This document shows, one piece after another, positions 4,269-49,447 of a stretch of DNA of 64,000 bases; position 1 is the first letter of the stretch, and every line of letters begins with the position of its first letter. This DNA is from a candidate division FCPU426 bacterium (GTDB lineage Bacteria > Oederibacteriota > Muellerivitia > Muellerivitales > Muellerivitaceae), in NCBI GenBank assembly GCA_963738405.1, contig CAVTWJ010000009.1:4793-68792 (forward strand). The letters run 5' to 3'. The notes below the pieces were generated by a model. That model was not told the origin of the DNA. It saw only the letters and a list, made by a program, of their open reading frames with translations, and ran no database searches. A program made the position numbers and the translations under genes.

Positions 4269-6179
4269 TTATGGGTTCGAATCGAGAGGGGTTTCTACAA
4301 GAACCTGAACCGTCCTGTTATAGTACCTTCCTTCAGGAAGCTCGTTCGGATAGAGCGGCTGTGTTTTCCCATAGCCATGCGCAACCAGCGACTTAACTTT
4401 GCCCTTGATGTGCCCCGCAATATCCATCTTAACAGCATTTGCGCGGTTCGTCGAGAGCTTGGTATTGTAATCCTCGGTGCCTAAGATATCCGTGTAGCCA
4501 TTGACGGAAACATCCGAATTCGGCTGGATGCGATTATAAACGTAAGAATCCAAGATCTTGTGATTCCACTTGCCCATATCGGACTTGTTATAGGTGAAAA
4601 GGATAAGATTGTAAGTCTCACGGGTCTTATCGGCCAAATGCTCCGCAACAACGTTGCTAACGGAGAACTGCTTGACACTGATCTTATCGACATTGGAAGA
4701 AACCGTGCGGCCGGTCTTATCCGTGACATTGAGCTGAACGGACATCATATCCTCACCAGATGGAAGTTTGCCATCGGAGGAGCGCCAGTTATAACCATTG
4801 TAATCCATCTTCGATAGCGATCCAAGATCGGTGATCTCCGCCCATTTCTTGCCTTGATAACCAATCTCCAGTGCACGGCTTTGGATCGTCTCGTCTCGGA
4901 GTCCGTTCTCCCATTTGAATCCCCCTGTCGGCGCATCGGGGCGCTTCACATTGCTGTTGTGCAACACAGGATGAATGATCTCCCATGAATCGCTCGTAAG
5001 CTCTACGCGGCGATTCTCAGCAATGCCTTCGGGAGTAGTTGGAAGTGTTGGGCTTTCCGGAAGTTTGCGTGCTTCAACGGAAATGCGTTCTGGATTAATA
5101 CCCCAGATCTCGACCAGATATTTCTTGACCGATTCTGCGCGCTGGCGGGAAAGATCGATCGACATCTCATTATCGACATCCTGCGAGTTCGTACCCGTCA
5201 GGCCGATCTTCGTATCCGGATTGTTCCGCATCCGAAGTCCAACGATATTAAGATAATTATAGTAAGCATTTAACGTACCGCTGATCGTATCTTCCGTGAA
5301 ACCCTTCGTCTGATCCGGGCTGGTAAACATCACATATCGCGATGGGAGCGTGCCAGTTCCAGCATCGTAGAACACCATCGGCAGCAGTGCATACAAATCG
5401 ATCGTCTTTTGCTCGCGAATGATAACGCCTTTGAAATTCGGGAAAAGCGAGGGTTTTTCCTTGACGAGCTGAGGATCCTGAGTCACCCAATGCACGACCG
5501 GTGGATTCTCGTTATTCATCGGAATATCGTGTGTGATGCTGCGGGAGGAATCGTTGCGCAACGGGATCACTTCCGAGGTCGGGCCATAATTAAAGTGGTT
5601 CGATTCTGTCGCGCTAATGATATAGGTACCCCCAAGGTTGCCATCGGCATCGCTCGGAAGAATAGCAAGATACTCTCCAGTGGAGCTGTTCGTAGTCTTA
5701 TTATAGATCGTGTCCTTCGTGCGCGAATCGATAATTACGACGTGCGCGGTCAGGTTCTCCTTTGTATTGATATCATACGCACGACCATGCAGCACAAGGG
5801 TTGGCTTGGGCGCCGGAGGATTTGTTGCAACATATACATCGAGCTTGCCACTTCCGCCAGGGCGGCTGCTGCTGAAAAAGAGTACGTTACCGGAGGCCGG
5901 AACAGAAAGAAAGAAATCGTCAGAAGGAGAATTGATCGGAGCAGGAAGCCGAACGGGGGTGGTCCAATCTGTATCGCTGGGTCCTTTCCATTCCGATTGA
6001 TAAATATCCAGCCCGCCAAGTCCAGGATGATTAGGATCGCGGCTGGGGGCATCAGATGCAAAATAGAGCGTCGTACCATCGGCTGCCATAAATGGGGATC
6101 CTTCATAGCCACCGGTATTTATCTTCGTACCAAGATTAACGGGGTCACTCCAGCGACCATCGGGAACACTTAGACGACA
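4269..6179 (-). CDS. OmpA-family protein with PD40/TolB-like beta-propeller repeats, 5'-truncated (frame stays open up to the composition junction at about 6180)
   Basis: C-terminal OmpA-like domain (NGYTDILGTEDYNTKLSTNRANAVK...RTVQVLVE). N-terminal PD40-like repeats (DGTTLYFASD, LDIYQSEW, GKLDVYVA). No signal peptide or start context; the in-frame ORF runs to about 6179, just before a stop. Confidence 0.6.
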   Translation of the reverse strand, partial: CRLSVPDGRWSDPVNLGTKINTGGYEGSPFMAADGTTLYFASDAPSRDPNHPGLGGLDIYQSEWKGPSDTDWTTPVRLPAPINSPSDDFFLSVPASGNVLFFSSSRPGGSGKLDVYVATNPPAPKPTLVLHGRAYDINTKENLTAHVVIIDSRTKDTIYNKTTNSSTGEYLAILPSDADGNLGGTYIISATESNHFNYGPTSEVIPLRNDSSRSITHDIPMNNENPPVVHWVTQDPQLVKEKPSLFPNFKGVIIREQKTIDLYALLPMVFYDAGTGTLPSRYVMFTSPDQTKGFTEDTISGTLNAYYNYLNIVGLRMRNNPDTKIGLTGTNSQDVDNEMSIDLSRQRAESVKKYLVEIWGINPERISVEARKLPESPTLPTTPEGIAENRRVELTSDSWEIIHPVLHNSNVKRPDAPTGGFKWENGLRDETIQSRALEIGYQGKKWAEITDLGSLSKMDYNGYNWRSSDGKLPSGEDMMSVQLNVTDKTGRTVSSNVDKISVKQFSVSNVVAEHLADKTRETYNLILFTYNKSDMGKWNHKILDSYVYNRIQPNSDVSVNGYTDILGTEDYNTKLSTNRANAVKMDIAGHIKGKVKSLVAHGYGKTQPLYPNELPEGRYYNRTVQVLVETPLDSNP

Positions 6180-6211: not shown

Positions 6212-7285
6212 TTTTTCGGAGGCAACAGTTCCGCCTTCTTAAATTCTTACTATCAAATCAGCCCTGTGGTCTCCCTGTCAGTCCCCCTCTTCAAGGATTT
6301 CGGAGGCGCCCAAACCAATGCCGGGGTGAAGGCCGTCCAGTACGGCTTGGAATCGGCGCAAAAACTTTCGGCCTTCCAGCGCGAAGGCGTCCTCTATAAC
6401 GCCAAGGTCGCCTATTGGAACCTGGCCCTCACCCGGGAAGAAGTGGATATCCGCCAAGACACCCTGGACCGCAGCCAAAAGATATGGGACTGGACCAAAC
6501 GCCGGGTCGCGCGCAACCTGGCCGACCCCCCGGATGCCCTGCAGGCCGAGGCCTCGGTGCGGGAAGCAGAGCTTGATTTACAAACCGCCGAAAACCGCGA
6601 GCGCTCTGCCCGGCTGGCCTTTAACCGTTTCCGCAACGGCGCCACCGAGGATGTGCCCGAACAGCTGGAGGCCCTGGAAGATTCGCTGACCCTGGTGAAG
6701 GTGGATTTTCCCGCCGACTTACCCCAGCGCATCGACCTTCAGGCTGTGGAGGCCCAAACCCGCCAGGCTAAGGCCACCTACGACGAAACCTACCAGAACA
6801 TTTACCCCGACATCACGGCCATCGCCTCCTGGCGGGGCAACGGCTTGGATCCCAATTTTTCCAACGCCAACACCACCGCTTTCGGCACCGACCATCCCAC
6901 CTGGATGCTGGGGGCGCAGTTCAACCTGTCGCTGGATGTCTTCACGGCGCAGCGCACCGCCGAAGGCTACCAGAAGGAATACGAAAGCTCTCTCCTCACC
7001 CTCAAGGACAAAAAACTGGAAGTGGACCAGGACTGGCGGGATATCCAGGCCAGGCTGGTCGATGTGGATAAGCGCCTGGCCATGTCCACCGATATCGAGG
7101 CCCTTCAAAAGCAAAACGCGGACGAGGAAAAACAACAGCTCGACCTGGGACGAACCACCCAGTTCCAGCTTCTCTCCATCGAGAACCAATATTCGCTGGC
7201 GCGGCTTAGCCGGCTCTCATTGGTTGCTGAAAAGCTGGGGCTCCTGGCCCAGGCCCAATGGTGGCTTACCAAGGAAAAGGAATAG
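6212..7285 (+). pseudogene. TolC-family outer-membrane efflux protein, 5'-truncated (about the C-terminal 355 codons only)
   Basis: Coiled-coil/beta-barrel repeat typical of outer-membrane factor proteins (LQAEASVREAELDLQTAENRERSARL, LLSIENQYSLARL). No signal peptide or N-terminal repeat. The frame is open from the stop at about 6209-6211. Confidence 0.6.
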
Positions 7286-7303
7286 AAAAAAGAGGAAGTT
7301 GAC

Positions 7304-7732
7304 GTCATTGCGAGGAGCCATGCCGATAGGCATGGTTGGCGACGTGGCAATCTCAGGTTTTAGGGCTTGGGCCGGGATTAAACATGGATAAAAACGGATA
7401 CGTTTATATTCTTGCCAACAAAAACAACACGACCCTTTATACAGGGGTCACTAACGATCTAAAACGCAGAGTTTATGAACACAAAGAGAAGCTGTTTGAA
7501 GGTTTTTCGAAAAAGTTTAACTTAACGAAGTTGGTTTATTACGAAGTTTTGGACGGCATGTTGGAAGCCATTGAAAGAGAAAAACAGATTAAAAAATATT
7601 CCAGGATAAGGAAGATTGAGCTGATTCGGATTAAGAATGAAACGTGGAAGGATTTGTATGAAGGGTTATAGAAGCACAACTAAGATTGCAACGTCGCTAA
7701 ACGCACCTATCGGTGCAGCTCCTCGCAATGAC
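7304..7732. mobile_element. small palindromic element with about 50-bp terminal inverted repeats carrying a GIY-YIG nuclease gene (MITE-like family, copy A)
   Basis: Left arm GTCATTGCGAGGAGCCATGCCGATAGGCATGGTTGGCGACGTGGCAATCTCAGG (7304-7357). Right arm AGATTGCAACGTCGCTAAACGCACCTATCGGTGCAGCTCCTCGCAATGAC (7683-7732) is its reverse complement with few mismatches. Confidence 0.75.
7384..7671 (+). CDS. GIY-YIG nuclease superfamily protein (YhbQ/UPF0213-like)
   Basis: MDKNGYVYILANKNNTTLYTGVTNDLKRRVYEHK matches the GIY-YIG core (YVYIL...LYTG.T.DL.RR..EH). The ORF-track start at 7336 lies inside the left inverted repeat, so the ATG at 7384 is preferred. Confidence 0.75.
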   Translation: MDKNGYVYILANKNNTTLYTGVTNDLKRRVYEHKEKLFEGFSKKFNLTKLVYYEVLDGMLEAIEREKQIKKYSRIRKIELIRIKNETWKDLYEGL

Positions 7733-7749
7733 AAAATGAGGCAAGGAAA

Positions 7750-10700
7750 ATGAACCTTCCCAAACTCGCCATCGAGCGCCCGGTTTTCATGAGCTGTGTG
7801 GTCATCCTCATCATGGTGCTGGGGATCATGGGCTACCGCTCACTCGGCGTGGATCTCTTCCCTGACGTGTCATTCCCCTTCGTCTTCGTGACGGTTCCTT
7901 ATCAAGGCGCCAGCCCCGAAGAAATCGAAAGCCAAATTTCCAAGCCGCTTGAAGACGAGCTTAGCTCCATTCAGGGAGTCAAAAAGGTCATGTCCACCAA
8001 CCAGGAAGGCTTCGGGGTTGTGACGGTTCAGTTCACGCTGGAAACCGACGCCAAGGACGCCGAACAACAGGTGCGCGACCGGGTGGCCTTCGTGAGGCCC
8101 AAACTGCCCAAGGGCGTGGATGAACCCATCATCCGCCGCTTTGACCCTACTGACCAGGCGGTGGCCATCCTGAGCCTCCAGGCCCCGGGCCTAACGGATG
8201 CTGAAATTTACGACCTGGCGGACCAGTACATCAAACCGAGACTCGCCGAGGTTCCCGGCGTGGGGGTCGTTAATATCATCGGGGGGCACAAGAGGGAAAT
8301 TCAGGTTCAGCTGGACCGCGCCCAGCTCAACCGCTACCGCTTAAGCTCCGGCCAGGTGGCCGACAAAATCGGCTTGAACGGCATGAACGTGCCGGTGGGC
8401 AAGGTAGACCTGGGGGTGAGCGAGCTTCTGTTTCGCTCCGTGGGCGAATACAACGACCTGGATCGCATCAAACGCACGCCCGTCAACTTTTTCGGCTCCG
8501 ATGTTTCCGTGACCGTGGACAAACTGGGCCAGGTGGTCGACACGGTGGTCGACCCGGACAGCTTCAGCTTCGTCAACGGCAAGCCCACCCTGGTGCTGGA
8601 AGTTTATAAGCAGTCCAAAGCCAATACGGTGGCCGTGGTCGACGGCGCCTTGAAACAAATGAACACGATCAACGAGTACCTCAAAACGAAAACCGGCTCG
8701 CCTGAACTTTCCCTCATCCAGGAACTGGCCCGCCCGGTGCGCATGAACCTGAAGGATGTGCAGTTCACCATCATGCAGGGCATCATCCTGACCATCCTGG
8801 TGGTGCTCCTCTTCTTAGGCAGCTTCCGTTCCACCCTCATCACCATCACGTCCCTTCCGGTTTCCCTTCTCGGCGCCTTTTTTCTGATGAACACCCAGGG
8901 CTATACCCTGAACGTCATGACGCTTTTGGCCCTTTCCCTGGCGGTGGGGCTCTTGATCGACGATGCCATCGTGGTGCGGGAAAACATCTGGCGGCATATC
9001 GAGGAGGGCGTAGACCCTAAAAAAGCCGCCGTGGACGGCGCGATGGAAGTGGCACTCGCCGTCGTGGCCACCTCCTCGGTGATCATCGCGGTCTTTTTGC
9101 CCATCGCTTTCCTTAAAGGAATCGTGGGCCAGTTTTTTCGCGAGTTCGGTATGACGGTTTGTTTCGCCATGGCCATCTCCCTTTTCGAAGCCATGGTCAT
9201 GGGGCCTTTGCTTTCGGCCTATTGGGCCAAAAAAAGTGTTCCCGGAAAAGACGAGGTTCCCTTCATAAGCCCGATCCTCAAGAGCTTCGACCGATTCCAA
9301 ACCTTTTTAGAAGCGAAGTACGCGGTTCTCATCAATTGGTGTCTCGGGAACCGCAAGAAGGTGATCGGCTCGGCGGTTTTCCTTTTTATCTTCTCCATGG
9401 TGGGGCTGGGGCCCCACATCAAATTCACCTTCCTTCCCACGGCGGACGTGGGGGAATTCGTGGTGCTTTTGAAGGCGGCGCCCGGCACCTCGCTGGATGA
9501 AATGAAAACTATGACGGAAACCGCGGCGCAGGTGATTCAAAAACACCCCGAAGTGGTGGTGCTTTCCGGTTCCATCGGGGGAACCGACGCCTCGGGCGCC
9601 ACCTCGGGCGTCAACAAGGCGAGGCTCTATATCCGCCTCAAGCCCTATCAGGAGCGCAGCATCACGACCAGCCAGCTCATGGCCACCGTGCGAAAAGAAC
9701 TGGACCCCTACCGGGATTCCCTCCAGCCCCAGGTGGCGGAAGCGGGCGCCTTCGGGGACGCGGCGCCGTTTAATTTGAATTTGGTCGGGGAGGATTACGC
9801 CACCCTGATTCCCTTCGCAAGCCAAGTCGCGGATAAGATCCGGGAGGTGAAAGACCTGGCCGATGTGCAATCCACCTACGACGGGGGCAAGCCCGAGTTT
9901 CAGGCGGTGCTGGACCCGGAGCGCATGAAGGTGCTGGGGGTTTCCGGCGTGGACGCCGGGGAGGAACTGCGAACCCAAGTGGAAGGATTGGTGGCGGCCA
10001 AACTGCGCCAGCACGGGGAAGACTACGACATCCGGGTGCGTCTACAGGAAAACCAGCGCAACCTGGAACAGCAATACCCGGTCATCCTGGTGCCCAACCA
10101 AAACCATAACATGGTGCGCTTGTCTGAAATTTCCCACCCCGTCACCACCGAGGGCCCTTCCCGCATCGACCGGCAGGACCGCGCCCGCTACATCATGATC
10201 TCGGGCCAGTTGGCGCCCGGCGGCGCCTTGGGCGGGGCCATCGATAAGGCCAAGGACATCATGAAGAACATCCAGATGCCCCCCGGCGTCACCTACTCGT
10301 TCGTGGGCCAGGCCCAGGACCTGCAAGATTTGATGGTGAGCATGATGGAGGCGGTAGGTTTGGCCATTCTCTTTACCTACATGATCCTGGCCAGCCTCTA
10401 CGAATCGCCCATCATCCCCTTCACCATCATGCTGGCCATTCCGCTGGCGGTGGTGGGGGCCTTCTTCGCGCTCTTCATCGGGCAGATCTTTGTTCCAACC
10501 CTCTCGCTCAATATCTTCAGCATGATCGCCTTGATCATGCTTTTGGGGCTGGTGACGAAAAATTCAATCCTTCTCGTGGACTACACCCTTCAGATGATGC
10601 GAAAAGGCCACCCGAGGGATGAGGCCCTGAAGATGGCGGGCAAGGTGCGTCTGCGCCCCATCCTCATGACCACCTTCGCCCTCATTGCCGGGATGCTTCC

Positions 10701-14943: not shown

Positions 14944-14962
14944 AGTTGTGTTAGGGTTTGAT

Positions 14963-15096
14963 GTCATTCCGAGGAGCAGAGCCGATAGGCTCGACTTGCG
15001 ACGTGGGAATCACAGGTTTTGCGGTAGTTTTTAAGTCATCACACTGAGATTGCCACGGTTCAAAACGCCCCGATTGGGGCTGAACCTCGCAATGAC
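14963..15096. repeat. empty copy (B) of the palindromic element family seen around the GIY-YIG gene
   Basis: GTCATTCCGAGGAGCAGAGCCGATAGGCTCGACTTGCGACGTGGGAATCACAGG ... ACTGAGATTGCCACGGTTCAAAACGCCCCGATTGGGGCTGAACCTCGCAATGAC. Confidence 0.75.
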
Positions 15097-19967: not shown

Positions 19968-20146
19968 GGTAAACAAAATCCACAAGTGGGTAAACAGTTC
20001 GGATAACCGGGTAAACAACAATCTCAACTAGGTAAACAAGGTCCGTAACCCGGTAAACAACCCACGCCAACCGGGTAAACAGGGACCCATAACTGGGTAA
20101 ACAGCCACTCTCAACCGGGTAAACAAGATTTCCCCGGGTAAACAAA
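19968..20146 (+). repeat. array of 9 direct repeats CGGGTAAACA at 21-22-bp spacing (iteron-like), preceded by an AT-rich segment (19895-19925)
   Basis: GGTAAACA occurrences start at 19968, 19989, 20010, 20031, 20052, 20074, 20096, 20118, 20137. Confidence 0.85.
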
Positions 20147-20156
20147 GGATTTTGCC

Positions 20157-22322
20157 GTGCCCCAACCTACGCCCGAATCAAAGGCCTGGATGGAAAGTTT
20201 GTCCGACCTGGCCGCCGACATTGAAAAACATCAAAAAGTTAAACATGCCGATCGGGCGGACGCCCTCGACCTTCACCCTACCAAGTTATCCTTCCTTTTG
20301 GCACTCCACCGGTGTTTGGACCCTGCGGCCCTTGCGAAAATCCGTCAGGCCGCCCAGGGGGATCACCCCTTTACCCTATCCTTTAAAAGCGCCAAGGCCT
20401 TGGCAGAGCTAGAGGGCCGGGTTCCTGATCTGTCAAAGGCGGTCCATGAGGCCTTAGACCAGATTCTGCCCCACCACCTAGCCACCCTGCAGATCAAAGC
20501 CCTGGTGGACCATATGGCCAGCGGCAAACCCGCCCAGGAATTTGACCCGACCCAGGTTAAAAAGACCCCCAAGGGTGGCCTTTCCCTCCAATCCCCAAGC
20601 CCTGACCCACCCCAAGAAGCCGAAGAGGATTCGGAGGATGAAGAACCGGAAGAAGAACCAACCAACCCAAAGGCCAAAAAGAAGACCTCTGCCCTGAGGT
20701 TTCAAACCGAGGGGCAAGGTTTGAGTGTACCCATTCCCAAAAAAGGAATGGGTAAGGCCAAAGGTCCCAACCTAAAACCCGCCAAGAAGGCCCTCAAAGG
20801 CGGGTTTAAAGACCTCCTCAAATACATTCACGAATATGTCAAAGCGGGCAGTAAGGCTGTGGCCGATTATTTCATTCCCTTGCACTCCCGTTCTAGCGGT
20901 AAGCGGGGAGGGGCCCAGTCCCTGCCCAACCTCTTCCGCTTTGCGGGCCATTGGGGGCTCTACTGGTTTTGCGTCCTGTTTATGTATGGCGGTAGCATCA
21001 GCTTCGTGGGGCACTTTATCCCCGGGGTGGGCCCCTGGATCGACGGCCTTCGGCTGGCTTTTTTCCACTTCATCCTTCACCTGCCTCTATGGCTCCTGGC
21101 ACAGGCGCTGGCCAAGCCCTGGGTGGTTCTAGTGCTAGGCGTTGCTCTGGTCTGGTGGATTCACAAGGAATTCCACGCCGGGTTGATGGCCACCCTCATC
21201 GTCGCGGCGGTTTTGGGCGCGGGATGGTATTTCCGGGGCTGGGTAATGGAACATCTACCAAATTTGACAAACCCATTTTCACCACCAAGTCTCCAAGACA
21301 CCAAGAACGACCAAGCCTTGGATAACAGCAAAACCCAAAGCCCCATAACCTCACCACCCAAGGCGGCCGGTTCCCCTATGGAACCGGCACAGCCAAGTCA
21401 TGGGCCTCGACCTGTCGTCTCGGCCCAGGCGCCCTCTGCCCGGAGGTCTCAAACCGACGGGCGTGACTTGAGTGCACCAATTCCGGAAAAAGGAATTGGT
21501 GTACAGGCCATGCCCAAAGAAGACCGGGCCTCTTTAGAAGCAGAAATCGCCGCCCTGCCCCGGCCCTGCCGGGTCAAAGATTTTCCCATCGAACCCGACC
21601 CCAATATAGGCGCCGAAATGGCAGGCCGCCGCCTCTCGGATATCCAGGACCCGGAAAAATATTCGCTTCGCGTGGGGCCCGATGAAAAAAAGATTACATC
21701 GGCGGTGGTGAATGGCTCCGGTTTCAACATGGAAATCCAAGGCGGCTTTTCGCTGGGGGACATCAACAGCGTCTTGGGCGATTCATCAAAAAAGGGAATG
21801 GCGTTTTATTGGGAAGACGTGCGGGCCATCCATTGTTGCGAGGTGGATGTGCTGGGGGATCACCCCCGTACCCTTTACCAATGCGGTTTGCTGATTGCGG
21901 GTTTGAAAAAGCCCATCACCGTGCAATGCGCAAGTGTTGAGGACTTGGGGCACCTGGTTTCGGGGCTGGAATTTTGGGTGCGAAACGCGCAGGGGGGCAA
22001 GAACGCGCCGATTGGCGGTTTGCCCTATCTGTACCAGGGCCTTCTGTTGGGCAGTGAAGGGGAAGTGATAGGTACTTGGGATAACAGCCCCATCGCGAAA
22101 ACGGGTTTTATGCCGGGCGATCATATATGGTCTGTGGATTCGAACCCCGGCATGCGCATGGGCAACGAGGAATTGCTTTCGAGTCTGCAAGACCTGTCGC
22201 CGGGCCCGCACGCGCTGTTTGTGGTGGACCCGGGTGAATGGGTGAAGGGAATGACGGGCCCAAGAAACAGAACCTGGGTTTTCAACCCGAAAAGAGTGAA
22301 GCTTCAATTGCTGGTTCAGTAA
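20157..22322 (+). CDS. large hypothetical protein, function unknown (acidic/Pro-rich linker, central 4-5 TM helices, internal SxPIPxKGxG repeat, possible C-terminal PDZ-like segment)
   Basis: 721-aa ORF with a GTG start directly after the repeat array (an alternative ATG lies at about 20186). Low-complexity EEDSEDEEPEEEP. Hydrophobic core LYWFCVLFMYGGSISFVGHF...VVLVLGVALVWWI. Confidence 0.5.
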   Translation: MPQPTPESKAWMESLSDLAADIEKHQKVKHADRADALDLHPTKLSFLLALHRCLDPAALAKIRQAAQGDHPFTLSFKSAKALAELEGRVPDLSKAVHEALDQILPHHLATLQIKALVDHMASGKPAQEFDPTQVKKTPKGGLSLQSPSPDPPQEAEEDSEDEEPEEEPTNPKAKKKTSALRFQTEGQGLSVPIPKKGMGKAKGPNLKPAKKALKGGFKDLLKYIHEYVKAGSKAVADYFIPLHSRSSGKRGGAQSLPNLFRFAGHWGLYWFCVLFMYGGSISFVGHFIPGVGPWIDGLRLAFFHFILHLPLWLLAQALAKPWVVLVLGVALVWWIHKEFHAGLMATLIVAAVLGAGWYFRGWVMEHLPNLTNPFSPPSLQDTKNDQALDNSKTQSPITSPPKAAGSPMEPAQPSHGPRPVVSAQAPSARRSQTDGRDLSAPIPEKGIGVQAMPKEDRASLEAEIAALPRPCRVKDFPIEPDPNIGAEMAGRRLSDIQDPEKYSLRVGPDEKKITSAVVNGSGFNMEIQGGFSLGDINSVLGDSSKKGMAFYWEDVRAIHCCEVDVLGDHPRTLYQCGLLIAGLKKPITVQCASVEDLGHLVSGLEFWVRNAQGGKNAPIGGLPYLYQGLLLGSEGEVIGTWDNSPIAKTGFMPGDHIWSVDSNPGMRMGNEELLSSLQDLSPGPHALFVVDPGEWVKGMTGPRNRTWVFNPKRVKLQLLVQ
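22158..22322 (+). repeat. direct repeat copy 1 (the 3' end of the 721-aa gene); copy 2 at 23100-23264
   Basis: About 165 bp with about 95% identity: atgggcaacgaggaattgctttcgag...caacccgaaaag. Confidence 0.85.
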
Positions 22323-22449
22323 TTGGAGTCCTCAAACCGTGGCATTCGTCTTGTGAACGAATGCCAGAGATGAAATTAACTGTGACGACCAAGTCGTCTT
22401 CTTGAGTTGATTTAAAATAGATGGTATAACAGTTATACCTGGAGCATGG

Positions 22450-22728
22450 ATGCGGTTTAAATTCGACAGGAACAAGAGCCATAAACTCCGCCGAAACCCC
22501 GCGCGCGGCATTGGTTTCGAGGAAGCCCAAAGAATATGGGAAAGCCCTTACTACCTCGACCAACGTTCCGACTTTCCGGAACAATGGAGGGCCATTGGCT
22601 GGGTGGGAGATAGGCTTTATTCCGTGATCTATGAAGAAAGAAGGGACCGGGAAGGGGATTACATCCACTTGGTCACTCTTTGGAAATCCACCAAGGAAGA
22701 AAGGAAATTATATGAAACCCATTCTTAA
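22450..22728 (+). CDS. brnT: BrnT-family toxin (DUF497) of a type II toxin-antitoxin pair
   Basis: MRFKFDRNKSHKLRRNPARGIGFEEAQRIW...YSVIYEERRDREGDYIHLVTLWKSTKEERKLY fits the BrnT pattern. Confidence 0.7.
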   Translation: MRFKFDRNKSHKLRRNPARGIGFEEAQRIWESPYYLDQRSDFPEQWRAIGWVGDRLYSVIYEERRDREGDYIHLVTLWKSTKEERKLYETHS

Positions 22729-22996
22729 GACAAAAAAAGTTCTGACGGCGGAACAAATAGCCCAAATGGCCGACAAGGGTAAGGATGTTTCCAAGCATTT
22801 CACGAACCATGGAAAAATGATGCCCGCCATCCGCCGGGTCAATGTGGATTTCGCCGAAAACATGCTGCGGGAATTGGACGGTTTGGTCCGCGAGATGAAC
22901 GTAAGCCGTCAGGCGGTCATCAAAGCTTTCCTGCGCCAGGGATTGGATCAGCACTACTTAGCCAAGAAAAAACGCCCGCATCCAACCGCTCATTAA
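22712..22996 (+). CDS. brnA: BrnA-like antitoxin (ribbon-helix-helix)
   Basis: Overlaps brnT by 17 nt. C-terminal RHH-like NVSRQAVIKAFLRQGLDQH. Confidence 0.6.
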   Translation: MKPILKTKKVLTAEQIAQMADKGKDVSKHFTNHGKMMPAIRRVNVDFAENMLRELDGLVREMNVSRQAVIKAFLRQGLDQHYLAKKKRPHPTAH

Positions 22997-23099
22997 CTCT
23001 TTAGTCCGATCCGGAAAACACAGGATGTAGTGGTGCCTTAAAAGGGGTGTATTAGAGTGGATCTGAAATTTTCTTTTTTCAGGCCTGACCCCTTTTACA

Positions 23100-23264
23100 C
23101 ATGGGCAACGAGGAATTGCTTTCGAGGCTGCAAGACCTGTCGCCGGGCCCGCACGCGCTGTTTGTGGTGGACCCGGGCGAATGGGTGAAGGGAATGACGG
23201 GCCCAAGAAACAGAACCTGGGTCTTCAACCCGAAAAGGACGAAGCTTGAATTGGATGTGCCGTA
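23100..23264 (+). repeat. direct repeat copy 2 (duplicated 3' end of the 721-aa gene; remnant ORF MGNEELLSRLQDLSPGPHALFVVDPGEWVKGMTGPRNRTWVFNPKRTKLELDVP)
   Basis: Aligned by eye to 22158-22322. Confidence 0.85.
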
Positions 23265-23284
23265 AAAGAGGTATATAAAGGGAA

Positions 23285-24283
23285 ATGAATTTGGATTACG
23301 TAGTCTGTAATTTTCTTTTTTCAGATCTGCCCCCTTTTACGATAATTAACGAATCGTTTGAACTTAAGGATATAAATTCGATGTTTTTAAAACCGAAAAC
23401 TTTAAAAATAAAACTTTACGAAGTGCCAACAACCAGCGAAAAAAATGTTATTGCAAAACTCCGAAAGGAGCTATTCCCAAAAGCTAATAAAGAAATGTTT
23501 TGGGGCATTGTCGCTGAATGGTATTCCTGGCTCAAACCAAACTGCAATCAAATTTCTATTTCAGACGCAGGCTATAAAACCAAATACGGGAAGGTTAATG
23601 TCAAAGAAATCGCTATTGCTCTTAACCGCCATCCAATAATTCTTCATGACAGTCAGTATCTCGAAACAACTTTTGTTCTATTACCTTGCTACCGATTTCT
23701 TTTTGACAACACCCTTGAGCCGTTGAGAATTTCGAAAGAACTTTTCGAAGCATTGAAAGAAATTAAAGAAAGAGATGCAAAAGAACATACTTCTATTTCA
23801 TATAAGGCTGACGAGCTGACCAAACGACTTGGTATGAAAGTAGATGAACCTTTCGAGGAAAAAATCCGTATGTTGTGCGATATAGGATTATTACACTGCT
23901 CTTCTTGGTCTTCAGGTTCCTCATTATTTGAAAATGCAACACTCAACATCAGCATTAAACCAACGGAAGAATATGAAGAGTGGTATAGAAATTTAATTTC
24001 TAATTTTGAGCGAGACGTAAATGACAACAAGAGAGAATTCTGGAAAAAAAACAAATTTTTACGTTGGCTCTCAGGGAAGGAATCCCTGACTGATAATGTT
24101 CTTGTTCCTGGTGAAATTTCCATTCAGGCTCAAAAACCAAGAATTTTACAAATTTCTATCCTTATACTTTTTATCCCACTCCTGGGCACAACCATCTATT
24201 TTGCTTCTCAAGCTAATTGGCCAGCCTGTGGAATATTTTTAACAGCAATATTAGCTTTATTGAATCTCGCCAAAGGGATGTAG
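23285..24283 (+). CDS. hypothetical protein with C-terminal double TM anchor (low-GC cassette, gene A)
   Basis: GC about 34%. C-terminal ILQISILILFIPLLGTTIYFASQANWPACGIFLTAILALLNL. Confidence 0.5.
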   Translation: MNLDYVVCNFLFSDLPPFTIINESFELKDINSMFLKPKTLKIKLYEVPTTSEKNVIAKLRKELFPKANKEMFWGIVAEWYSWLKPNCNQISISDAGYKTKYGKVNVKEIAIALNRHPIILHDSQYLETTFVLLPCYRFLFDNTLEPLRISKELFEALKEIKERDAKEHTSISYKADELTKRLGMKVDEPFEEKIRMLCDIGLLHCSSWSSGSSLFENATLNISIKPTEEYEEWYRNLISNFERDVNDNKREFWKKNKFLRWLSGKESLTDNVLVPGEISIQAQKPRILQISILILFIPLLGTTIYFASQANWPACGIFLTAILALLNLAKGM

Positions 24284-24285
24284 AA

Positions 24286-25500
24286 ATGTCGAATTCCGAA
24301 ATTCCAATCTCCAAAAATTATTTCTCGGCCAAAGGCAAAAATGCAGAAAGTTTTTTATACGAGCTTTCTAAGAAATCTTTTTTTGTAGATTGGTGTTATT
24401 TAAACCCTCTGTTACCAGACGGAAAAGAATTATGTGATCTGTTAATTGTGTTTGACGAAATTGCAATTATTTGGCAAATAAAGGATTTGAAGCCCAATAA
24501 AGACGGAGGAATTAAAGAGTCCGATTTTGAAAAAAACATAAAACAACTGTCCGGCGCACGCCGTACCCTTTTCGACCTTAAAACTCCAATTAAGTTGAAT
24601 AATCCAAGACGAGGGGAAGAAATATTCAACCCTGAAAAAATCAAAGAAATATATTTAATTGCAGTTTTCATCGGTGATTTTCAATCAAGCATTCCTTTAA
24701 TTGATTCAATCAAAAAATATTTGGTCCATATTTTCATAATGCCTTTTTTAGAAATAGTTTTGAACGAGCTAGATACCATTACTGATTTTATAGAATACTT
24801 AAGGTGCAAAGAAAAATTCATTACTTCTTTTAATCAACGGATAATTACTCTTTCCGGCGAAGAAGATTTTCTCGGTCTTTATCTTTTAAATGATAGAAAT
24901 TTAGACAAATTCAATAATGCTATTTTATTAACCGTTGCGGATGATATTTGGAAAGGATTTTCCACTTCTGAAAATTACAACCGCCGAGAAAAGGCTGATA
25001 AGAAAAGTTATTTTTGGGACAATCTGATTAATAGAGCCCATGAAGCAGAAACGGGAGAATACGAAATAATAGCTCGTGAATTGGCTCGTTTAAATCGCTT
25101 TGAAAGAAGATTGGCAAGTAACAGTTTTATTGAAGCCCATTTGTCGCTAAAGAATGATCCGAATAAATTATTCAAACGAACAATAGCAATTAAAGGCGTT
25201 TCTTATTGTTTTTTATTCGCTGGTGAAGCTGAAAAAGATATCGAGGAACGAAAAAATCTCTTGTTTCATACTTGTATGATTGTACGGATGCTTAAGCCTG
25301 AAAACAAAACCGTAATCGGCATTTCTACAAGTGCTGCGTATGGCCCAACATTTGGATATGAGTTTTTTTATATAAATATTCCAGAACTTTCTCAAAGTGA
25401 TATTGATGAAATCAAACAATACCAAAATAAGTTAGGGATCTACACCAAACCAGAAGAACACTTCAAGCAAGAATGGGAATATCCAAAAGATAAATCTTAA
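24286..25500 (+). CDS. NERD (nuclease-related, PD-(D/E)xK-like) domain protein (gene B)
   Basis: GKNAESFLYELSKKSFFVDWCYLNPLLPDGKELCDLLIVFDEIAIIWQIKDLK resembles the NERD core (G..E..v..L.kl...v..n.......EiDhlvi...gifvIEvKn). Start MSNSEIP at 24286 preferred over 24217. Confidence 0.45.
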   Translation: MSNSEIPISKNYFSAKGKNAESFLYELSKKSFFVDWCYLNPLLPDGKELCDLLIVFDEIAIIWQIKDLKPNKDGGIKESDFEKNIKQLSGARRTLFDLKTPIKLNNPRRGEEIFNPEKIKEIYLIAVFIGDFQSSIPLIDSIKKYLVHIFIMPFLEIVLNELDTITDFIEYLRCKEKFITSFNQRIITLSGEEDFLGLYLLNDRNLDKFNNAILLTVADDIWKGFSTSENYNRREKADKKSYFWDNLINRAHEAETGEYEIIARELARLNRFERRLASNSFIEAHLSLKNDPNKLFKRTIAIKGVSYCFLFAGEAEKDIEERKNLLFHTCMIVRMLKPENKTVIGISTSAAYGPTFGYEFFYINIPELSQSDIDEIKQYQNKLGIYTKPEEHFKQEWEYPKDKS

Positions 25501-25514
25501 GCTCTAAAAACACC

Positions 25515-26297
25515 ATGGAGGCTATTAAAATGCCATCCGAAATCCACACAGAAAATTCCGTAAAAGATAAATATAAAATCATGTATAAAAATTCTTACGC
25601 CTCAACTTTGCGAGACATTGCTGATTACGATTACATTTCGGCTCGACTTCTTCTTAGAAACCATTGCAAAGACCAATTTTTATATCTTGCCTACCAATCT
25701 CTAGAAAAGTACATGAAGTCCATTTTACTTTTTCATCTCCGAAAAAACAAAATCGGACATGATATTACAAAACTATTTGGTGAAATTTGTAAAATCACTG
25801 AGTTTGAGATCGGAAATAATCCAAGAATAAAGACCTTTATTGAAAGGTTTGATAATACTTTCGGGGACCCAAGATATTTATCGCTAGGATTTGCCGGTGA
25901 TTATAAGTATCTATTCGAACTAGATTATGCAGTTTGGAAACTTAGGATTTATTGTCAGCCTGAGAGAAACAGAATCTCTTTATTGGAAAAGGCGGACGAA
26001 AAAATATTGAAAAAATCATTCTTGAAAGGGACATTCTTACTTTGGTCGGGAGTATTAGAAGATGTTCATAAGGAAAAGAAAAAGGGCTTATATCAGAGTT
26101 TGGTTTGGTTTAATTCTTACTTTGGTCGTTTCAAAGGGAATGAAATGTCTCTCATGGGATATTGGTTTAAAAATTCTCCGTTGTTTTCAGGCAATGAAGA
26201 AAGACGCCTCTTAACTTACGAATCCATAAAGGACTATGTTCACATACCCCCGAAAATAAAAAACTACTTTGAAGATTTGAAAAAAAGGAACTCCTGA
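25515..26297 (+). CDS. HEPN-like protein (Rx5H motif) (gene C)
   Basis: DYDYISARLLLRN...FLYLAYQSLEKYMKSILLFHLRKNKIGHDITKLF. The R-x5-H and helical pattern resemble HEPN. Confidence 0.4.
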   Translation: MEAIKMPSEIHTENSVKDKYKIMYKNSYASTLRDIADYDYISARLLLRNHCKDQFLYLAYQSLEKYMKSILLFHLRKNKIGHDITKLFGEICKITEFEIGNNPRIKTFIERFDNTFGDPRYLSLGFAGDYKYLFELDYAVWKLRIYCQPERNRISLLEKADEKILKKSFLKGTFLLWSGVLEDVHKEKKKGLYQSLVWFNSYFGRFKGNEMSLMGYWFKNSPLFSGNEERRLLTYESIKDYVHIPPKIKNYFEDLKKRNS

Positions 26298-26465
26298 ACT
26301 GGTATGGAAGAAACGGACGGGGTCAGGCATGAAAAAAGAAAATTAAAGTTAATCGCACAACAATTACTAACATCACTTATATCCACGTCCTGAATCAGTT
26401 CGAACAAGACCTTAAGTTGTGTCTCCGTTAGTGGTAAAAGTCGCTTTTAATTAAATGGATAAATA

Positions 26466-27869
26466 ATGGAACCAAATCCTATCGAACAGCCATCATCCGA
26501 ACGGCAGGTTTACTATCCTGAAACGCTAAAGGGTTCAAAAGCCCTTTGGCCCTTAATTTTATTTGCTTCATTTGTTCCTTTGGGGTTCCTTTTTATATTT
26601 CTAAGCATTTATTTCCATACGGGAAGGCTTTATTTCCCCTGGTGGTCACCACGAATCCGTTCTTTGTATGTATTTTGGGTTTTTAATTTACTGGTTGTCT
26701 TTTTGAGGTTGAAAAGTCAAAAAGCTCATGCCGAAACATCACCGGAGGGTCTTGCGCAAGTGAATGCTTTTGGGAAACAGGTCGATATTCCCTGGGATGA
26801 AATCGGCCAGGTTTTGGTGGATGAGGGCGGTATTGTTCGGGTTAAGGACAAAACCGGTAAAAAAACCATCAACCTTTCGAAGTTTTATAAAAATTTTGAC
26901 CAACTGAAGAAAAGGGTTTTAGAAGAATACGAAACAAAAAGAATTCCCCAGGCGAAAGAAGCCGCCCTTTATGGCATGGCCTCGAAAGTCGGCATTATTT
27001 ATTTTTGGGGTGGGTTATTTATTCTGATTCTTGGTCTGACATCGGTAGTAGGCGGTGTTATGACCCTCATGGGTTATGGTGACACGAAAGTTAATCCATT
27101 GGTCAATGAGATCATCTTTTTAGTCTTCGGCCCAGCCTTCATTGCCCTTGCGGTTTACTGTCTTTGGTGGGGTGTGAGAGTTAAATACAGCAAAATCGAA
27201 ATTACTCAATCGGGAATCGCCAGGCTAGAGAAAGCTGGAAACCGGGTTTTTATTAAATGGGAGGATGTAGCCCGGTTGACCAAAAGGGAACGGATGAAAG
27301 ACATAGTGGTTACCAGCTTGGACCCATCTAAAAAAATCATGGTGGATTATCAATTTGAAGGGTTCGAGCAGATTCGAGACAGAGTTTTTATGGAATTCGA
27401 GAAAAGGCTGTCCTTGCCAGTGGTGGCCACGACCTACGGCCCAAAATGGATTCATCCCAACTTTGTCTTGATGGGATTTATGGGAGCTTTTATTGGACTA
27501 TTGTGTTTCGCCCGATTCAGCCAAAAAACCACAGGCGATACGAGCGGGTTTAACTTCTTAATTATCCTTTTAGTGGGTTTTTATTTGTTCATTCTTTTCG
27601 CGGAAACAAAAGCGGTGAAGGCCCTGACCTTAAACGGAAATGAAATTATCCTTCGCAAACTTTTTGGAAAGAAAATTCTACAAGGACGTGAAGTGGCGGA
27701 CATTTCCATGGATAGTATCGCGGGCCAACACGGGACTTTTTATTACCGAATTCAACTGACTGCCGAAGATGGGAAGAAATACATCTTCGCCAATGATCTT
27801 GGAACAGAAGTGGGTGTTTATCCGGTCCTCAAGAAATGGCTGGAGAAACAAAAAGGCGGACGAGGCTAG
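26466..27869 (+). CDS. YdbT-like membrane protein with three tandem [2 TM + bacterial PH (bPH_2)-like] modules (gene D)
   Basis: Three repeats of a hydrophobic hairpin followed by a soluble segment of about 90 aa (e.g. VDIPWDEIGQVLVDEGGIVRVKDKTGKK; VFIKWEDVARLTKRERMKDIVVT; LTLNGNEIILRKLFGKKILQGREVADISMD). Confidence 0.5.
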   Translation: MEPNPIEQPSSERQVYYPETLKGSKALWPLILFASFVPLGFLFIFLSIYFHTGRLYFPWWSPRIRSLYVFWVFNLLVVFLRLKSQKAHAETSPEGLAQVNAFGKQVDIPWDEIGQVLVDEGGIVRVKDKTGKKTINLSKFYKNFDQLKKRVLEEYETKRIPQAKEAALYGMASKVGIIYFWGGLFILILGLTSVVGGVMTLMGYGDTKVNPLVNEIIFLVFGPAFIALAVYCLWWGVRVKYSKIEITQSGIARLEKAGNRVFIKWEDVARLTKRERMKDIVVTSLDPSKKIMVDYQFEGFEQIRDRVFMEFEKRLSLPVVATTYGPKWIHPNFVLMGFMGAFIGLLCFARFSQKTTGDTSGFNFLIILLVGFYLFILFAETKAVKALTLNGNEIILRKLFGKKILQGREVADISMDSIAGQHGTFYYRIQLTAEDGKKYIFANDLGTEVGVYPVLKKWLEKQKGGRG

Positions 27870-28019
27870 GCCTGAAAAAATCTGTTTTACGACGTCCATT
27901 CAACTAAATCCCTTTTGAGTTAAGCCCTAATAAAAATAATGACTATGTCAATTTGGCAGGCTTTTTCCTACACTTCCCTTCGTTAGCAGGTGTTTTGAGG
28001 CGAAGAAAAACAGGGGAGA

Positions 28020-32836: not shown

Positions 32837-32960
32837 GTCATTGCGAGGCCCAGCCCCAATCGGGGTGGTTTGAGCCGTGGCAATCTCAGTTAAAAGCCGA
32901 AAAAAACCTGGGATTCCCACGTCGCAAACCAAGCCTATCGGCTTTGCTCCTCGGAATGAC
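32837..32960. repeat. empty copy (C) of the palindromic element family
   Basis: GTCATTGCGAGGCCCAGCCCCAATCGGGGTGGTTTGAGCCGTGGCAATCTCAG ... GGGATTCCCACGTCGCAAACCAAGCCTATCGGCTTTGCTCCTCGGAATGAC. Confidence 0.75.
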
Positions 32961-47737: not shown

Positions 47738-49447
47738 CTAAACGTAACTGACCCGGCTTTTGGGGGGCTCGGGTTCTTTCTTTACCTTTTTGGGCTTGCG
47801 GCGGGAGGGTTTGGAGTCCGACTTTTGCTTGTAGTGAAGGATCAACAAGACGCCCCCCACCAGAAAATAAACCAGGCCGAATTGCGGGGCGGCGAAAAGG
47901 CCGAACTTATTTTGCAATCCCGTGTCGGTCAGCCGATAGGCATGGATGAGGCCCGTCATGGCAAGGGCCGCACCGGCGAAGGACCAATAGGCGGCCCGCT
48001 CGAATTTGCGGTCGATGATGTAAACCATCATGGAGGCGAACACCATGGAGGTCAGAAGAAAACCCTGGCTGAGAAAAACCACTCCCCGGATATAGAGAAG
48101 GCTTCCGAATTTATCCCAAGCCGTGAAGAGTGTCGCGCCCGATACCTGTAGGGTAGGGAGAATCACCATTTGAAGCACGAAGGCGGCGAAGGCGGGGATC
48201 AGGCCAAAGGCAACCGCCAAACCGTGTTCCTTCGGGATTTCCGTAAAGGCCTGGGCCGTGATGATGATGGCGATCCAAAGCAGGATTCCCAAAATGCATT
48301 CCTGGGGAATCACCTGCAGGAAAAGGGTCACGCCCCCGAAGAGGCACAAAAGGGCGATGATCACTCCGTTCAAGATGGAATAACCGTGGCGGGCGCCCAG
48401 GGCTTTCCAGCCCGGATGTCCGATGTAAATGGTGGTCGGGAATGCGCTTCCGAAAAATCCCGCGGCAATGGTGGCTATGCCGTTGGTCAGAAGAGAGGGT
48501 TTGGTGGGGTAACGGTCGCCCCCCGCTTCGGCGCTTTCAAGATTTTGCAGGGAGCCGATGACGTTGAAGAGGCCCATGGGGAATATGACCGCTAGGTATT
48601 TCCAACCGGAGGAACTAAACATCAAGGCCACGAGGTCTTTCGGAACAGCGTGGGGCGGGTAAAAGCCCCATTGGATGGGGTCGGTCGAAACGTTTAAGGT
48701 GATGACGTGGAGGCTATAGAGGGCCCAGGCGATCAGGCTTCCCAAGAGCACCGCCAAAAAGCCGCCCGGCAGGGAATAGGGCCATTTGATTTTGGAACCG
48801 TAGGAAATCAGGATCAACATCATGGGGAAAAGCCCCACTAGAGGATTGGCGAAGATTTGAAAGATGAATCCCATGGCGATAAAGGTAATGGCCACTCCGG
48901 CCAGGGCGCAAAGCATGGCGGCCCGGGGAGTGTTTTGCCTCAACCAGTCGCCCGCGTAAGCCCCGCCGATTTCCATCAATCCATTTAAAAAACAAGCGAA
49001 GAGCCCGACCTGCCAAGCAAGGTGGTAATCATGGGTGTCCTGATAGACCGGTGCGATCACCAGAAAGATAAAGGCGATCAGGCTAGGAGTATTGATGCCG
49101 AAGGGAAGGGCCGTCACGTCAGTGCGGCCGGTTTGAAGGGCCAGCCTGCGGGCCTGCCAAGCGTAAAAAAGATTCCCGATGAGGATAGACAAGGCGGCGC
49201 CGGGCAGGATCTGGCCGGTGATAAATTCCGTCGGGAAACCGCAAAAGACCTTGCAGAGCCCGCCTACCAGCATCAGTTGAAGAAGATTGTCGATAAAGAG
49301 CCCAAAGAAACCGTCCAGGTCGCCCCGGGTGAACCAGGGCAAATCCCCGCCGGGAATATAATCTTTGGAATGCACGAGAAAGCGCAAAAAGGCAGGATTT
49401 TTTTGGAACGAGAGGGGCTTTTTAAGGAAATCCATGAGCTTGGACAT
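47738..49447 (-). CDS. permease, possibly NCS2/AzgA-like purine permease family
   Basis: About 12-14 TM with a basic C-terminal tail. The family call is uncertain. Confidence 0.4.
   Translation of the reverse strand: MSKLMDFLKKPLSFQKNPAFLRFLVHSKDYIPGGDLPWFTRGDLDGFFGLFIDNLLQLMLVGGLCKVFCGFPTEFITGQILPGAALSILIGNLFYAWQARRLALQTGRTDVTALPFGINTPSLIAFIFLVIAPVYQDTHDYHLAWQVGLFACFLNGLMEIGGAYAGDWLRQNTPRAAMLCALAGVAITFIAMGFIFQIFANPLVGLFPMMLILISYGSKIKWPYSLPGGFLAVLLGSLIAWALYSLHVITLNVSTDPIQWGFYPPHAVPKDLVALMFSSSGWKYLAVIFPMGLFNVIGSLQNLESAEAGGDRYPTKPSLLTNGIATIAAGFFGSAFPTTIYIGHPGWKALGARHGYSILNGVIIALLCLFGGVTLFLQVIPQECILGILLWIAIIITAQAFTEIPKEHGLAVAFGLIPAFAAFVLQMVILPTLQVSGATLFTAWDKFGSLLYIRGVVFLSQGFLLTSMVFASMMVYIIDRKFERAAYWSFAGAALAMTGLIHAYRLTDTGLQNKFGLFAAPQFGLVYFLVGGVLLILHYKQKSDSKPSRRKPKKVKKEPEPPKSRVSYV

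Follow-up and report, generated by a model that had tools for sequence, protein, structure and literature searches.

What a solitary nuclease gene does between two inverted copies of a repeat, when the same repeat also occurs in pairs without it, is the question raised by a 64,000-nt stretch of DNA (the window) from a candidate division FCPU426 bacterium (GenBank assembly GCA_963738405.1, contig CAVTWJ010000009.1, positions 4,793 to 68,792 of the forward strand). At positions 7304–7732 of the window, an open reading frame (ORF) for a 95-aa GIY-YIG protein lies between two inverted arms of about 50 bp. The original prediction read this unit as similar to a miniature inverted-repeat transposable element (MITE), with the GIY-YIG protein as a possible mobilising nuclease. 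As judged by comparison of the protein and of the arms with characterized counterparts, the ORF very probably encodes a member of the Ssn family of nucleases, with the arms as its cognate hairpin repeats, known as Ssn-related motifs (SRMs). The gene and its arms together form a module resembling an insertion sequence (IS), and the gene-less arm pairs are doublets resembling bacterial interspersed mosaic elements (BIMEs) or REPINs, the doublets formed by repetitive extragenic palindromic (REP) sequences.

The gene (7384–7671, + strand) is the only GIY-YIG gene of the window. As originally described, it is placed between an outer-membrane efflux protein (OEP) gene and a resistance-nodulation-division (RND) transporter gene, which are on the same strand. 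Its predicted product is a single-domain nuclease in which Pfam recognized the GIY-YIG family (PF01541, E = 4.5e-16, residues 4–74) and no other family above threshold. The protein, with its 95 aa and one domain, does not have the C-terminal DNA-binding domain of GIY-YIG homing endonucleases of the I-TevI type, and it matched none of the anti-phage defence models of PADLOC. The GC content of the gene is 35%, as compared to 53% for the window. In a BLASTP comparison with the Neisseria gonorrhoeae homologue of the Ssn prototype SsnA, which was our Neisseria reference for identity, the window protein was 51% identical over 86 aa (E = 2e-33, 98 bits), and tblastn against the N. gonorrhoeae copy gave E = 5e-23; the published study of Ssn accepted homologues of SsnA at E < 1e-10. 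Residues Y8, Y19 and E66 of the window protein, the counterparts of Y6, Y17 and E64 in N. meningitidis SsnA, were invariant in an alignment of 16 sequences that included the Neisseria copy, and by these residues the active site is intact. The earlier description of the protein as YhbQ-like holds for the fold and the size class, which it shares with UPF0213/YhbQ-type proteins (PDB 1zg2, 1ywl), but is otherwise imprecise, as the nearest solved UPF0213 protein (1zg2) scored only 28 bits (E = 2.5e-5) compared with the 98 bits to the SsnA homologue. This difference in score lends indirect support to a placement in the CDD family of the Ssn nucleases, cd10448. To our knowledge, no repeats are associated with the small GIY-YIG proteins of the UPF0213/YhbQ type.

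The connection with Ssn was made through the N. gonorrhoeae homologue: because it sits among CGTCATTCCCGCGCAGGCGGGAATC repeats, which are of the classical dRS3 type (NTS/dRS3), it led us to the dRS3 literature and thereby to the Ssn study. Literature searches by general terms on GIY-YIG proteins and such repeats returned nothing relevant, and the arm sequence searched as text returned primers only. Ssn enzymes, which a 2025 report introduced as the first endonucleases to be both site-specific and exclusive to single-stranded DNA (ssDNA), are single-domain GIY-YIG proteins that act only on ssDNA and cut it just 5' of their cognate hairpin repeats (Chenal et al., Nat Commun 2025, PMC11893778). 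The prototype, N. meningitidis SsnA (NMV_0044, 94 aa, CDD family cd10448), acts with NTS repeats, an extended and oriented form represented by nearly half of the dRS3 copies; the general class, SRM, is defined as a hairpin-forming inverted repeat of 20–50 nt that flanks ssn, and the study curated 29 repeats (PMC11893778). Such a motif was found in 71% of the homologue regions, and on both sides of the gene in 42%. Purified SsnA binds the hairpin only as ssDNA and nicks the forward strand alone, at a distance of a few nucleotides upstream; N. meningitidis SsnA had no activity on double-stranded DNA (dsDNA) or RNA, and did not bind RNA of the same sequence (PMC11893778). Mutagenesis showed that cleavage is governed by the three nucleotides 5' of the palindrome and binding by the C directly 3' of it, and that mutations of Y6, Y17 and E64 abolish cleavage by SsnA. 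Additionally, specificity was found to differ between SsnA homologues, and in N. meningitidis the system was found to lower transformation by repeat-carrying DNA (PMC11893778). The authors noted that the repeat–gene–repeat arrangement recalls both an insertion sequence and REP sequences with their REP-associated tyrosine transposases (RAYTs), with mobility put forward only as a hypothesis; they expect many enzyme/repeat pairs of differing specificity, and view them as tools for ssDNA manipulation (PMC11893778).

A search of the window with GTCATTSCGAGG, allowing at most one mismatch, returned exactly six sites, at 7304 (+), 7732 (−), 14963 (+), 15096 (−), 32837 (+) and 32960 (−), as compared to 0.64 sites expected from shuffles; six sites were reached in 0 of 100 shuffles. 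All six arms (~49–53 nt) are intergenic: two of them are inverted around the GIY-YIG gene, and the others make up two gene-less doublets at 14963–15096 and 32837–32960, exactly where the original prediction had placed its empty copies. The arms could be aligned without gaps over ~53 nt, with 31 invariant columns, and a repeat search of the window found the same arm families again (D9, D10, I1–I5). A candidate for a seventh arm at 47911–47945 (I8), which is located inside a coding ORF and does not have the arm termini, was rejected as a chance match. Both internal boxes that had been noticed, CCGATAGG and CCCAATCGGGG, are present, and they define arm types A and B. The arms at 7304, 7732, 14963 and 32960 are of type A, with the layout GAGGAGC-[stem GATA stem]-GCGACGTGG, and those at 15096 and 32837 are of type B, with the layout GAGGYYCA-GCCCC AATC GGGGY-TGRRCC.

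In the gene-bearing copy, both arms are of type A with an ATTGC outer helix. The left arm (7304–7356, + strand), GTCATTGCGAGGAGC-CATGCC GATA GGCATG-GTTGGCGACGTGGCAATCTCAG, stands 27 nt 5' of the ssn start codon, and the right arm (7680–7732, − strand), which is inverted, ends 17 nt before the RND start codon. Both doublets combine an arm of type A with one of type B, and the two arms of one doublet are only ~70% complementary. Doublet 1 consists of a type A left unit with the outer helix ATTCC/GGAAT (14963–15015, + strand), the spacer GTTTTGCGGTAGTTTTTAAGTCATCACA (15016–15043), which is homologous to doublet spacers of related genomes, and a type B right unit with the outer helix ATTGC/GCAAT (15044–15096, − strand). 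Doublet 2 is in its entirety the reverse complement of doublet 1 (83–86% identity, I1/I2), with its type B unit at 32837–32889 (+ strand) and its type A unit, again with the outer helix ATTCC/GGAAT, at 32908–32960 (− strand).

Every arm folds alone as a hairpin with a core of 49 nt. We modelled it as three helices. The outer one has 5 bp (ATTSC/GSAAT), a middle one follows, and the apical one ends in a loop of GATA or AATC; the folding strand reads GTC-ATTSC...GSAAT-C. In an alignment of 24 units of the window-arm class, taken from the window and related genomes (alignment A6), 90.2% of the cells were paired according to this model, as compared to 75.7% after shuffling, and the unpaired cells in the middle helix of type A correspond to a tandem G.A/A.G mismatch. 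The covariation score of the model was 0.373 versus 0.109 for shuffled alignments, and was matched by 0 of 500 shuffles. Eight helix pairs had changes on both sides, and in the slid controls, in which partners were moved by 1–3 columns, the score dropped to 0.02–0.06. G1, T2, C3 and C49, that is, the GTC before and the C after the outer helix, were invariant in 24/24 units. The arms are conserved independent hairpins with strong covariation, and not halves of one palindrome. We also considered one long palindrome per doublet and rejected it: single strands of the doublets fold four-way, pairing within each arm is perfect, and the terminal stem would contain a mismatch, one unit having an ATTCC and the other an ATTGC outer helix. 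As each arm folds alone, and as the arms of a doublet are so imperfectly complementary, the empty copies do not fold as the single perfect hairpin of ~60 bp that had been expected of them.

The association of such hairpins with the gene extends over many phyla. The protein family is very large (7,983 proteins at E ≤ 1e-3 among 8,000 candidates examined). Proteins 63–68% identical to that of the window come from Cyanobacteria, Deltaproteobacteria, Thermodesulfobacteriota, Nitrospirota (Dissulfurispiraceae) and Neisseriaceae, and loci from GTDB species genomes add Planctomycetes, Chloroflexi, WOR-3, Patescibacteria, Bacteroidota and others. We inspected the flanks of 83 homologous genes with enough flanking sequence, 80 of them from GTDB species genomes. 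Units of the form TCATTGCGAG...GAAGCAATCTC were present upstream (+) and downstream (−) of 46 of the 83 genes and on one side only of 22, and most of the remaining genes had more divergent GTCAT-stem...stem-ATC hairpins. A stricter scan of 1.13 Mb, nearly all of it made up of loci fetched for their ssn homologues, revealed 398 units versus 14 in reversed-sequence controls. Their density within 400 nt of the gene (2.96/kb) was 24 times that found elsewhere (0.126/kb). Typically, one unit stands 10–50 nt before the start codon and an inverted one 1–10 nt past the stop codon. The commonest units around the homologues (L002–L081) are 24–31 nt long, e.g., TCATTGCGAGCGAAGCGAAGCAATC, and have the apex GCGNAGC with a GNA triloop. 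In all 80 loci from GTDB species genomes, the gene enclosed by the arms encodes a GIY-YIG protein, and not an HUH (Y1) transposase. In a Smithella locus (L019), two copies are located 1.7 kb apart, and the homology between them runs exactly from TGTCATTGCGAG to CTCGCAATGAC (GTCATT...AATGAC), with arms that are nearly identical and genes that are ~85% identical. A different setting was seen in Planktothrix agardhii plasmid p1 (L092, positions 1180–2100), where an ssn homologue is located between an MmeI-type restriction-modification gene and the DISARM gene drmA. The homologue thus lies in a neighbourhood of defence genes on a plasmid, with arrays of TGTCATTCTGAG... units, some full and some truncated, on its flanks.

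The window arms share with published SRMs a hairpin, here with a 49-nt core, that flanks ssn on both sides (7304–7356, + strand; 7680–7732, − strand), the GTC before and the C after the stem, at the positions that govern cleavage and binding by SsnA, and an occurrence in multiple, intergenic copies. Several observations weigh against the assignment. The published SRM search sequence, HGTCWYN(0-2)YYVSBRHN(0-5)WNVSBRGN(0-2)RNCYNB, matched 0 of the 6 window arms, nothing else in the window, and 0 of 396 units around the closest homologues (L002–L081), even though the same pattern, used as a regular expression, found 9 NTS repeats in the Neisseria locus. It fails on the arms because their stem begins with TTGC or TTCCGA instead of the required pyrimidine-rich run. 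The arms therefore belong to a class outside the published definition, as drawn by its search pattern. Moreover, G.U pairs numbered 112 in the presumed folding strand and 90 in its opposite-strand equivalent, and therefore the sequence alone gives no strong mark of which strand folds. Five homologues on IMG/VR viral contigs (L086–L090, 37–53% identity) had no recognizable GTCAT-hairpin unit within 400 nt; these copies may lack repeats, or may have repeats that have diverged beyond what the search pattern recognizes. Finally, the cut position and strand rules that we assume for the window arms are extrapolated from a Neisseria enzyme that is 51% identical, while homologues are known to differ in specificity. 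The Ssn nuclease with its hairpin repeats is itself a known system, published in 2025, and our additions to it are incremental: a class of repeats that the published motif does not pick up, doublets consistently made of two different units, and comparative evidence of mobility.

To compare orthologous sites, relatives were found via the RND transporter; the first RND protein is 86–95% identical among these genomes. At the junction between the OEP gene and the first RND gene, the window has the full element, L097/L098 have a left-arm remnant and a doublet, L093 and L085 have none, L084 has none of this type, and in L082 other genes intervene. At the junction between the first and second RND genes, the window stands apart in that it lacks the second RND gene; L097/L098 have a doublet, a full element and another doublet, L095 has a full element, L093 has a full element and a doublet, and L082 and L084 have none. 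The right end of the L097 doublet at the OEP/RND junction adjoins the same sequence as in the window, AATGAC followed directly by AAA(A/T)TGAGGCAA, and the left-arm remnant of L097 is located at the homologous left boundary. There is also no doublet in L082 at the site of window doublet 2. Thus, the element family has been gained and lost at orthologous sites in this lineage, and the existence of full, doublet-only and empty orthologous sites in close relatives suggests recent mobility. Exact insertion points at the empty sites cannot be defined, because the intergenic spacers of the relatives have diverged too far; only the right boundary common to the window and L097 is precise.

The efflux operon has been rearranged around the element (window 6266–7285 and 4269–6089). 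The OEP gene 5' of the element is N-terminally short, encoding 339 aa, which match the Pfam profile only at positions 67–184, versus 477–496 aa in relatives; the synteny of TetR, sigma-70 and OEP genes seen in relatives is replaced in the window by an OmpA/PD40 gene on the opposite strand; and the second RND gene, which comes after the first in all relatives, is missing. In L084, whose OEP/RND junction does not have the element, we observed a small solitary hairpin, GGAATTTTCCGCGAAGCGGGAATGACC, at 9925–9950. Its reverse complement, GGTCATTCCCGCTTCGCGGAAAATTCC, resembles the short NTS-type unit of a Patescibacteria locus (L042).

A metagenome scan with the exact 49-nt pattern returned at least 120 matching stretches. 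Eighty loci among the matches listed contained 133 units, arranged as 42 gene-less doublets versus 5 gene-bearing copies (~8:1). In 43 of the 46 distinct doublets among the matches listed, a unit with the ATTCC outer helix was paired with an ATTGC unit. No target-site duplication, which the original prediction had proposed to look for at the element ends, was present at 43 of the 46 distinct doublets among the matches listed, or at the three window copies. The 5' flank of both doublet units, each read on its own strand, is biased to TTTG(N)Y, and many of the metagenome doublets (L099–L178) have a conserved left extension, GTGYNTCAGTTTGAY, before the ATTCC unit; the window has GTGTTAGGGTTTGAT at 14948–14962. 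As this is the region where Ssn homologues cut, the bias and the extension could be a cleavage or target-site preference. No conserved target gene was found at the flanks of the units, which show only the weak TTTG(N)Y bias. Homology between doublet spacers extends over several sites and genomes, and arms are 90–98% identical between genomes in which the ssn genes are ~80% identical.

By analogy with SsnA, the arm-bearing strand that reads GTCATT would become single-stranded in the course of replication, repair, transformation or conjugation, and would fold. Ssn would then bind the folded hairpin and nick a few nucleotides 5' of GTC, which at the gene-bearing copy predicts nicks at ~7298–7303 (+ strand) and ~7733–7738 (− strand). 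Since the arms are inverted, there would be one cleavable arm per strand, at its 5' side, and therefore either strand of a module or a doublet would be cut once. That Ssn itself drives the spread is a hypothesis, here as in the literature, and so are the two routes that might be taken, namely, nick-driven copying with deletion derivatives, or nick-driven homing by which doublets acquire the gene. It is possible, too, that the host restricts or modulates incoming ssDNA with Ssn, as in Neisseria.

As to the distribution of the module, it is a real possibility, though short of an even chance, that arm–ssn–arm is a mobile element, still active or active until recently, whose mechanism is of a new type. 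A hydrolytic, ssDNA-specific GIY-YIG enzyme would mobilise it, with no HUH or DDE chemistry, and the doublets would be its non-autonomous, REPIN-like progeny, spread or replaced by nick-triggered recombination. This reading is partly favoured because orthologous sites are full, doublet-only or empty in genomes whose first RND proteins are so similar, because doublets greatly outnumber full copies in the 80 metagenome loci, because homology between some of the doublet spacers spans sites and genomes, and because the arms are better conserved than the gene, whose GC content is foreign to the host. We consider it unlikely, though not far-fetched, that the doublets are instead primary and not deletion derivatives, and that ssn invades existing doublets in a homing-type manner, by nick-induced recombination with the arms as homology. 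Such an order of events would suit the one orthologous site that, between homologous boundaries, contains arm–gene–arm in the window and a doublet in L097. Moreover, the arms are more conserved than the genes, both between genomes and between the two copies in Smithella, which fits frequent gene conversion through the arms. However, both arms of the gene-bearing window copy are of type A with ATTGC helices, whereas doublets nearly always consist of two different units, and three genomes are too few to infer which way the shared site changed. The original MITE-like prediction is thus supported in part, by the recurrent arm–gene unit, the homologues shown to cut beside such repeats, the numerous doublets and the variable orthologous sites; a classical MITE is not supported.

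Three further explanations are disfavoured. It is very improbable that the module is a classical cut-and-paste MITE or IS, with the arms as double-stranded terminal inverted repeats bound by a GIY-YIG transposase, and with insertions that make target-site duplications. The location of a nuclease gene between inverted arms with gene-less copies elsewhere, the excess of the latter over full copies, and the sharp homology boundaries between the copies of L019 would all be expected of such an element, but no target-site duplication accompanies the window copies or nearly all of the listed doublets, compensatory changes maintain pairing within an arm and not between the two arms, doublets pair two different units, the Neisseria homologue is inactive on dsDNA, and the protein has no DNA-binding or strand-transfer domain. 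The arms are better described as structured hairpins that are recognized as ssDNA. We give equally little credence to the view that the arms work chiefly at the RNA level, as terminators, mRNA stabilisers or attenuators (roles that have been proposed for REP sequences), next to a GIY-YIG gene that is there incidentally, even though they are stable, covarying hairpins, all copies are intergenic, and copy 1 lies between co-directional genes of an apparent efflux operon and would be transcribed if these are co-transcribed. Rfam families do not cover the arms, whether the window and eight loci are scanned at gathering thresholds or the element is scanned with E values of up to 5, and no T-tract or terminator-like site was found at them. 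The units occur in either orientation relative to flanking genes, and across phyla they follow the GIY-YIG gene and not any class of host gene. Most of the apical loops are GNA triloops with a closing C-G pair (e.g., GCGAAGC), a motif known for very stable DNA mini-hairpins. The suggestion in the original prediction that the copies might form large RNA hairpins is without support, because N. meningitidis SsnA does not act on RNA, nor does it bind RNA of the same sequence; and although the copies are intergenic, as it had stated, a promoter next to the gene-bearing element was not confirmed, as the only promoter consensus match within 7200–7800 is inside the gene. Least credible of all is that the repeats are REP sequences or BIMEs spread by a RAYT, an HUH tyrosine transposase, encoded elsewhere, and that the GIY-YIG gene is only a frequent neighbour. 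The architecture is formally identical to that of REP doublets and REP-flanked RAYT genes, but the enclosed gene is GIY-YIG in 80/80 loci from GTDB species genomes, the units are 24-fold enriched around it, and GIY-YIG homologues were shown to bind and cut these repeats (PMC11893778).

Compared with the Ssn/NTS system of Neisseria, the window locus likewise has a single-domain GIY-YIG protein of ~94 aa, with 51% identity to that of N. gonorrhoeae and with the catalytic Tyr/Tyr/Glu kept, encoded between inverted hairpin repeats that are multi-copy and intergenic, with GTC 5' and C 3' of the stem. It differs in its arms, which are three-helix structures of 49–53 nt with a G.A/A.G motif, whereas NTS is a simple hairpin of 28 nt, and which are outside the published search pattern, are of two types, and form doublets of two different units. 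It differs, too, in the direct evidence of gain and loss at orthologous sites, which the published study only hypothesised, and in the host, an uncultured lineage, to which the role in transformation may not apply. The likeness to REP/BIME (REPIN)–RAYT systems consists in short hairpins with a tag beside the stem, inverted intergenic doublets, a nuclease gene flanked by inverted repeats, recognition of an ssDNA hairpin, and no target-site duplications. Here, however, the enzyme is a GIY-YIG hydrolase for which no strand-transfer chemistry is known, whereas RAYT is an HUH tyrosine transposase with a covalent intermediate, and the tag is GTC...C. Elements of the IS200/IS605 family are likewise compact, have sub-terminal DNA hairpins that are read on ssDNA, and make no target-site duplication. 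Their two ends are recognized and cut on the same strand, which allows excision as a single-stranded circle. The window arms, in contrast, are inverted, with one cleavable arm per strand, and the enzyme belongs to another class.

Apart from the ssn locus, a few other features of the window should be mentioned. A low-GC island at 22000–28000 (core 23067–26348; 34–45% versus ~55% around) contains ORFs of 332, 427 and 260 aa bracketed by inverted repeats of 26–30 nt, at 23067–23092 and 23305–23334, which are paired with 26319–26348 (83–96%). A direct repeat of 166 nt (22157–22322 and 23100–23265, 93%) lies just 5' of the three-ORF core of the island. Only the last of the island ORFs has a Pfam match (HEPN), and none has a PADLOC match; the island may be an acquired cassette. 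At its left end (positions 1–1660), the window has 70% GC and 12-nt periodic repeats (GGGCTCGTGGCC-like; D1–D3) inside a 549-aa ORF without a Pfam match. Three tandem 22-nt repeats with CCGGGTAAACA (D14) at 20043–20125, directly 5' of the ORF 20157–22322, may be a repeated operator or binding site.

For the Ssn family, the window locus is a candidate new specificity, in which an Ssn enzyme is paired with a longer, three-helix hairpin missed by the published motif search. Repeats of this class, which escapes the published pattern, surround the closest homologues in Cyanobacteria, Chloroflexi, Planctomycetes, Deltaproteobacteria and others, and therefore published censuses may undercount the system. 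As relatives in this lineage differ at the same intergenic sites, the lineage can be used to ask whether modules of ssn and its repeats are mobile, and it is also suited to asking how a simple hydrolytic nuclease could spread such modules.

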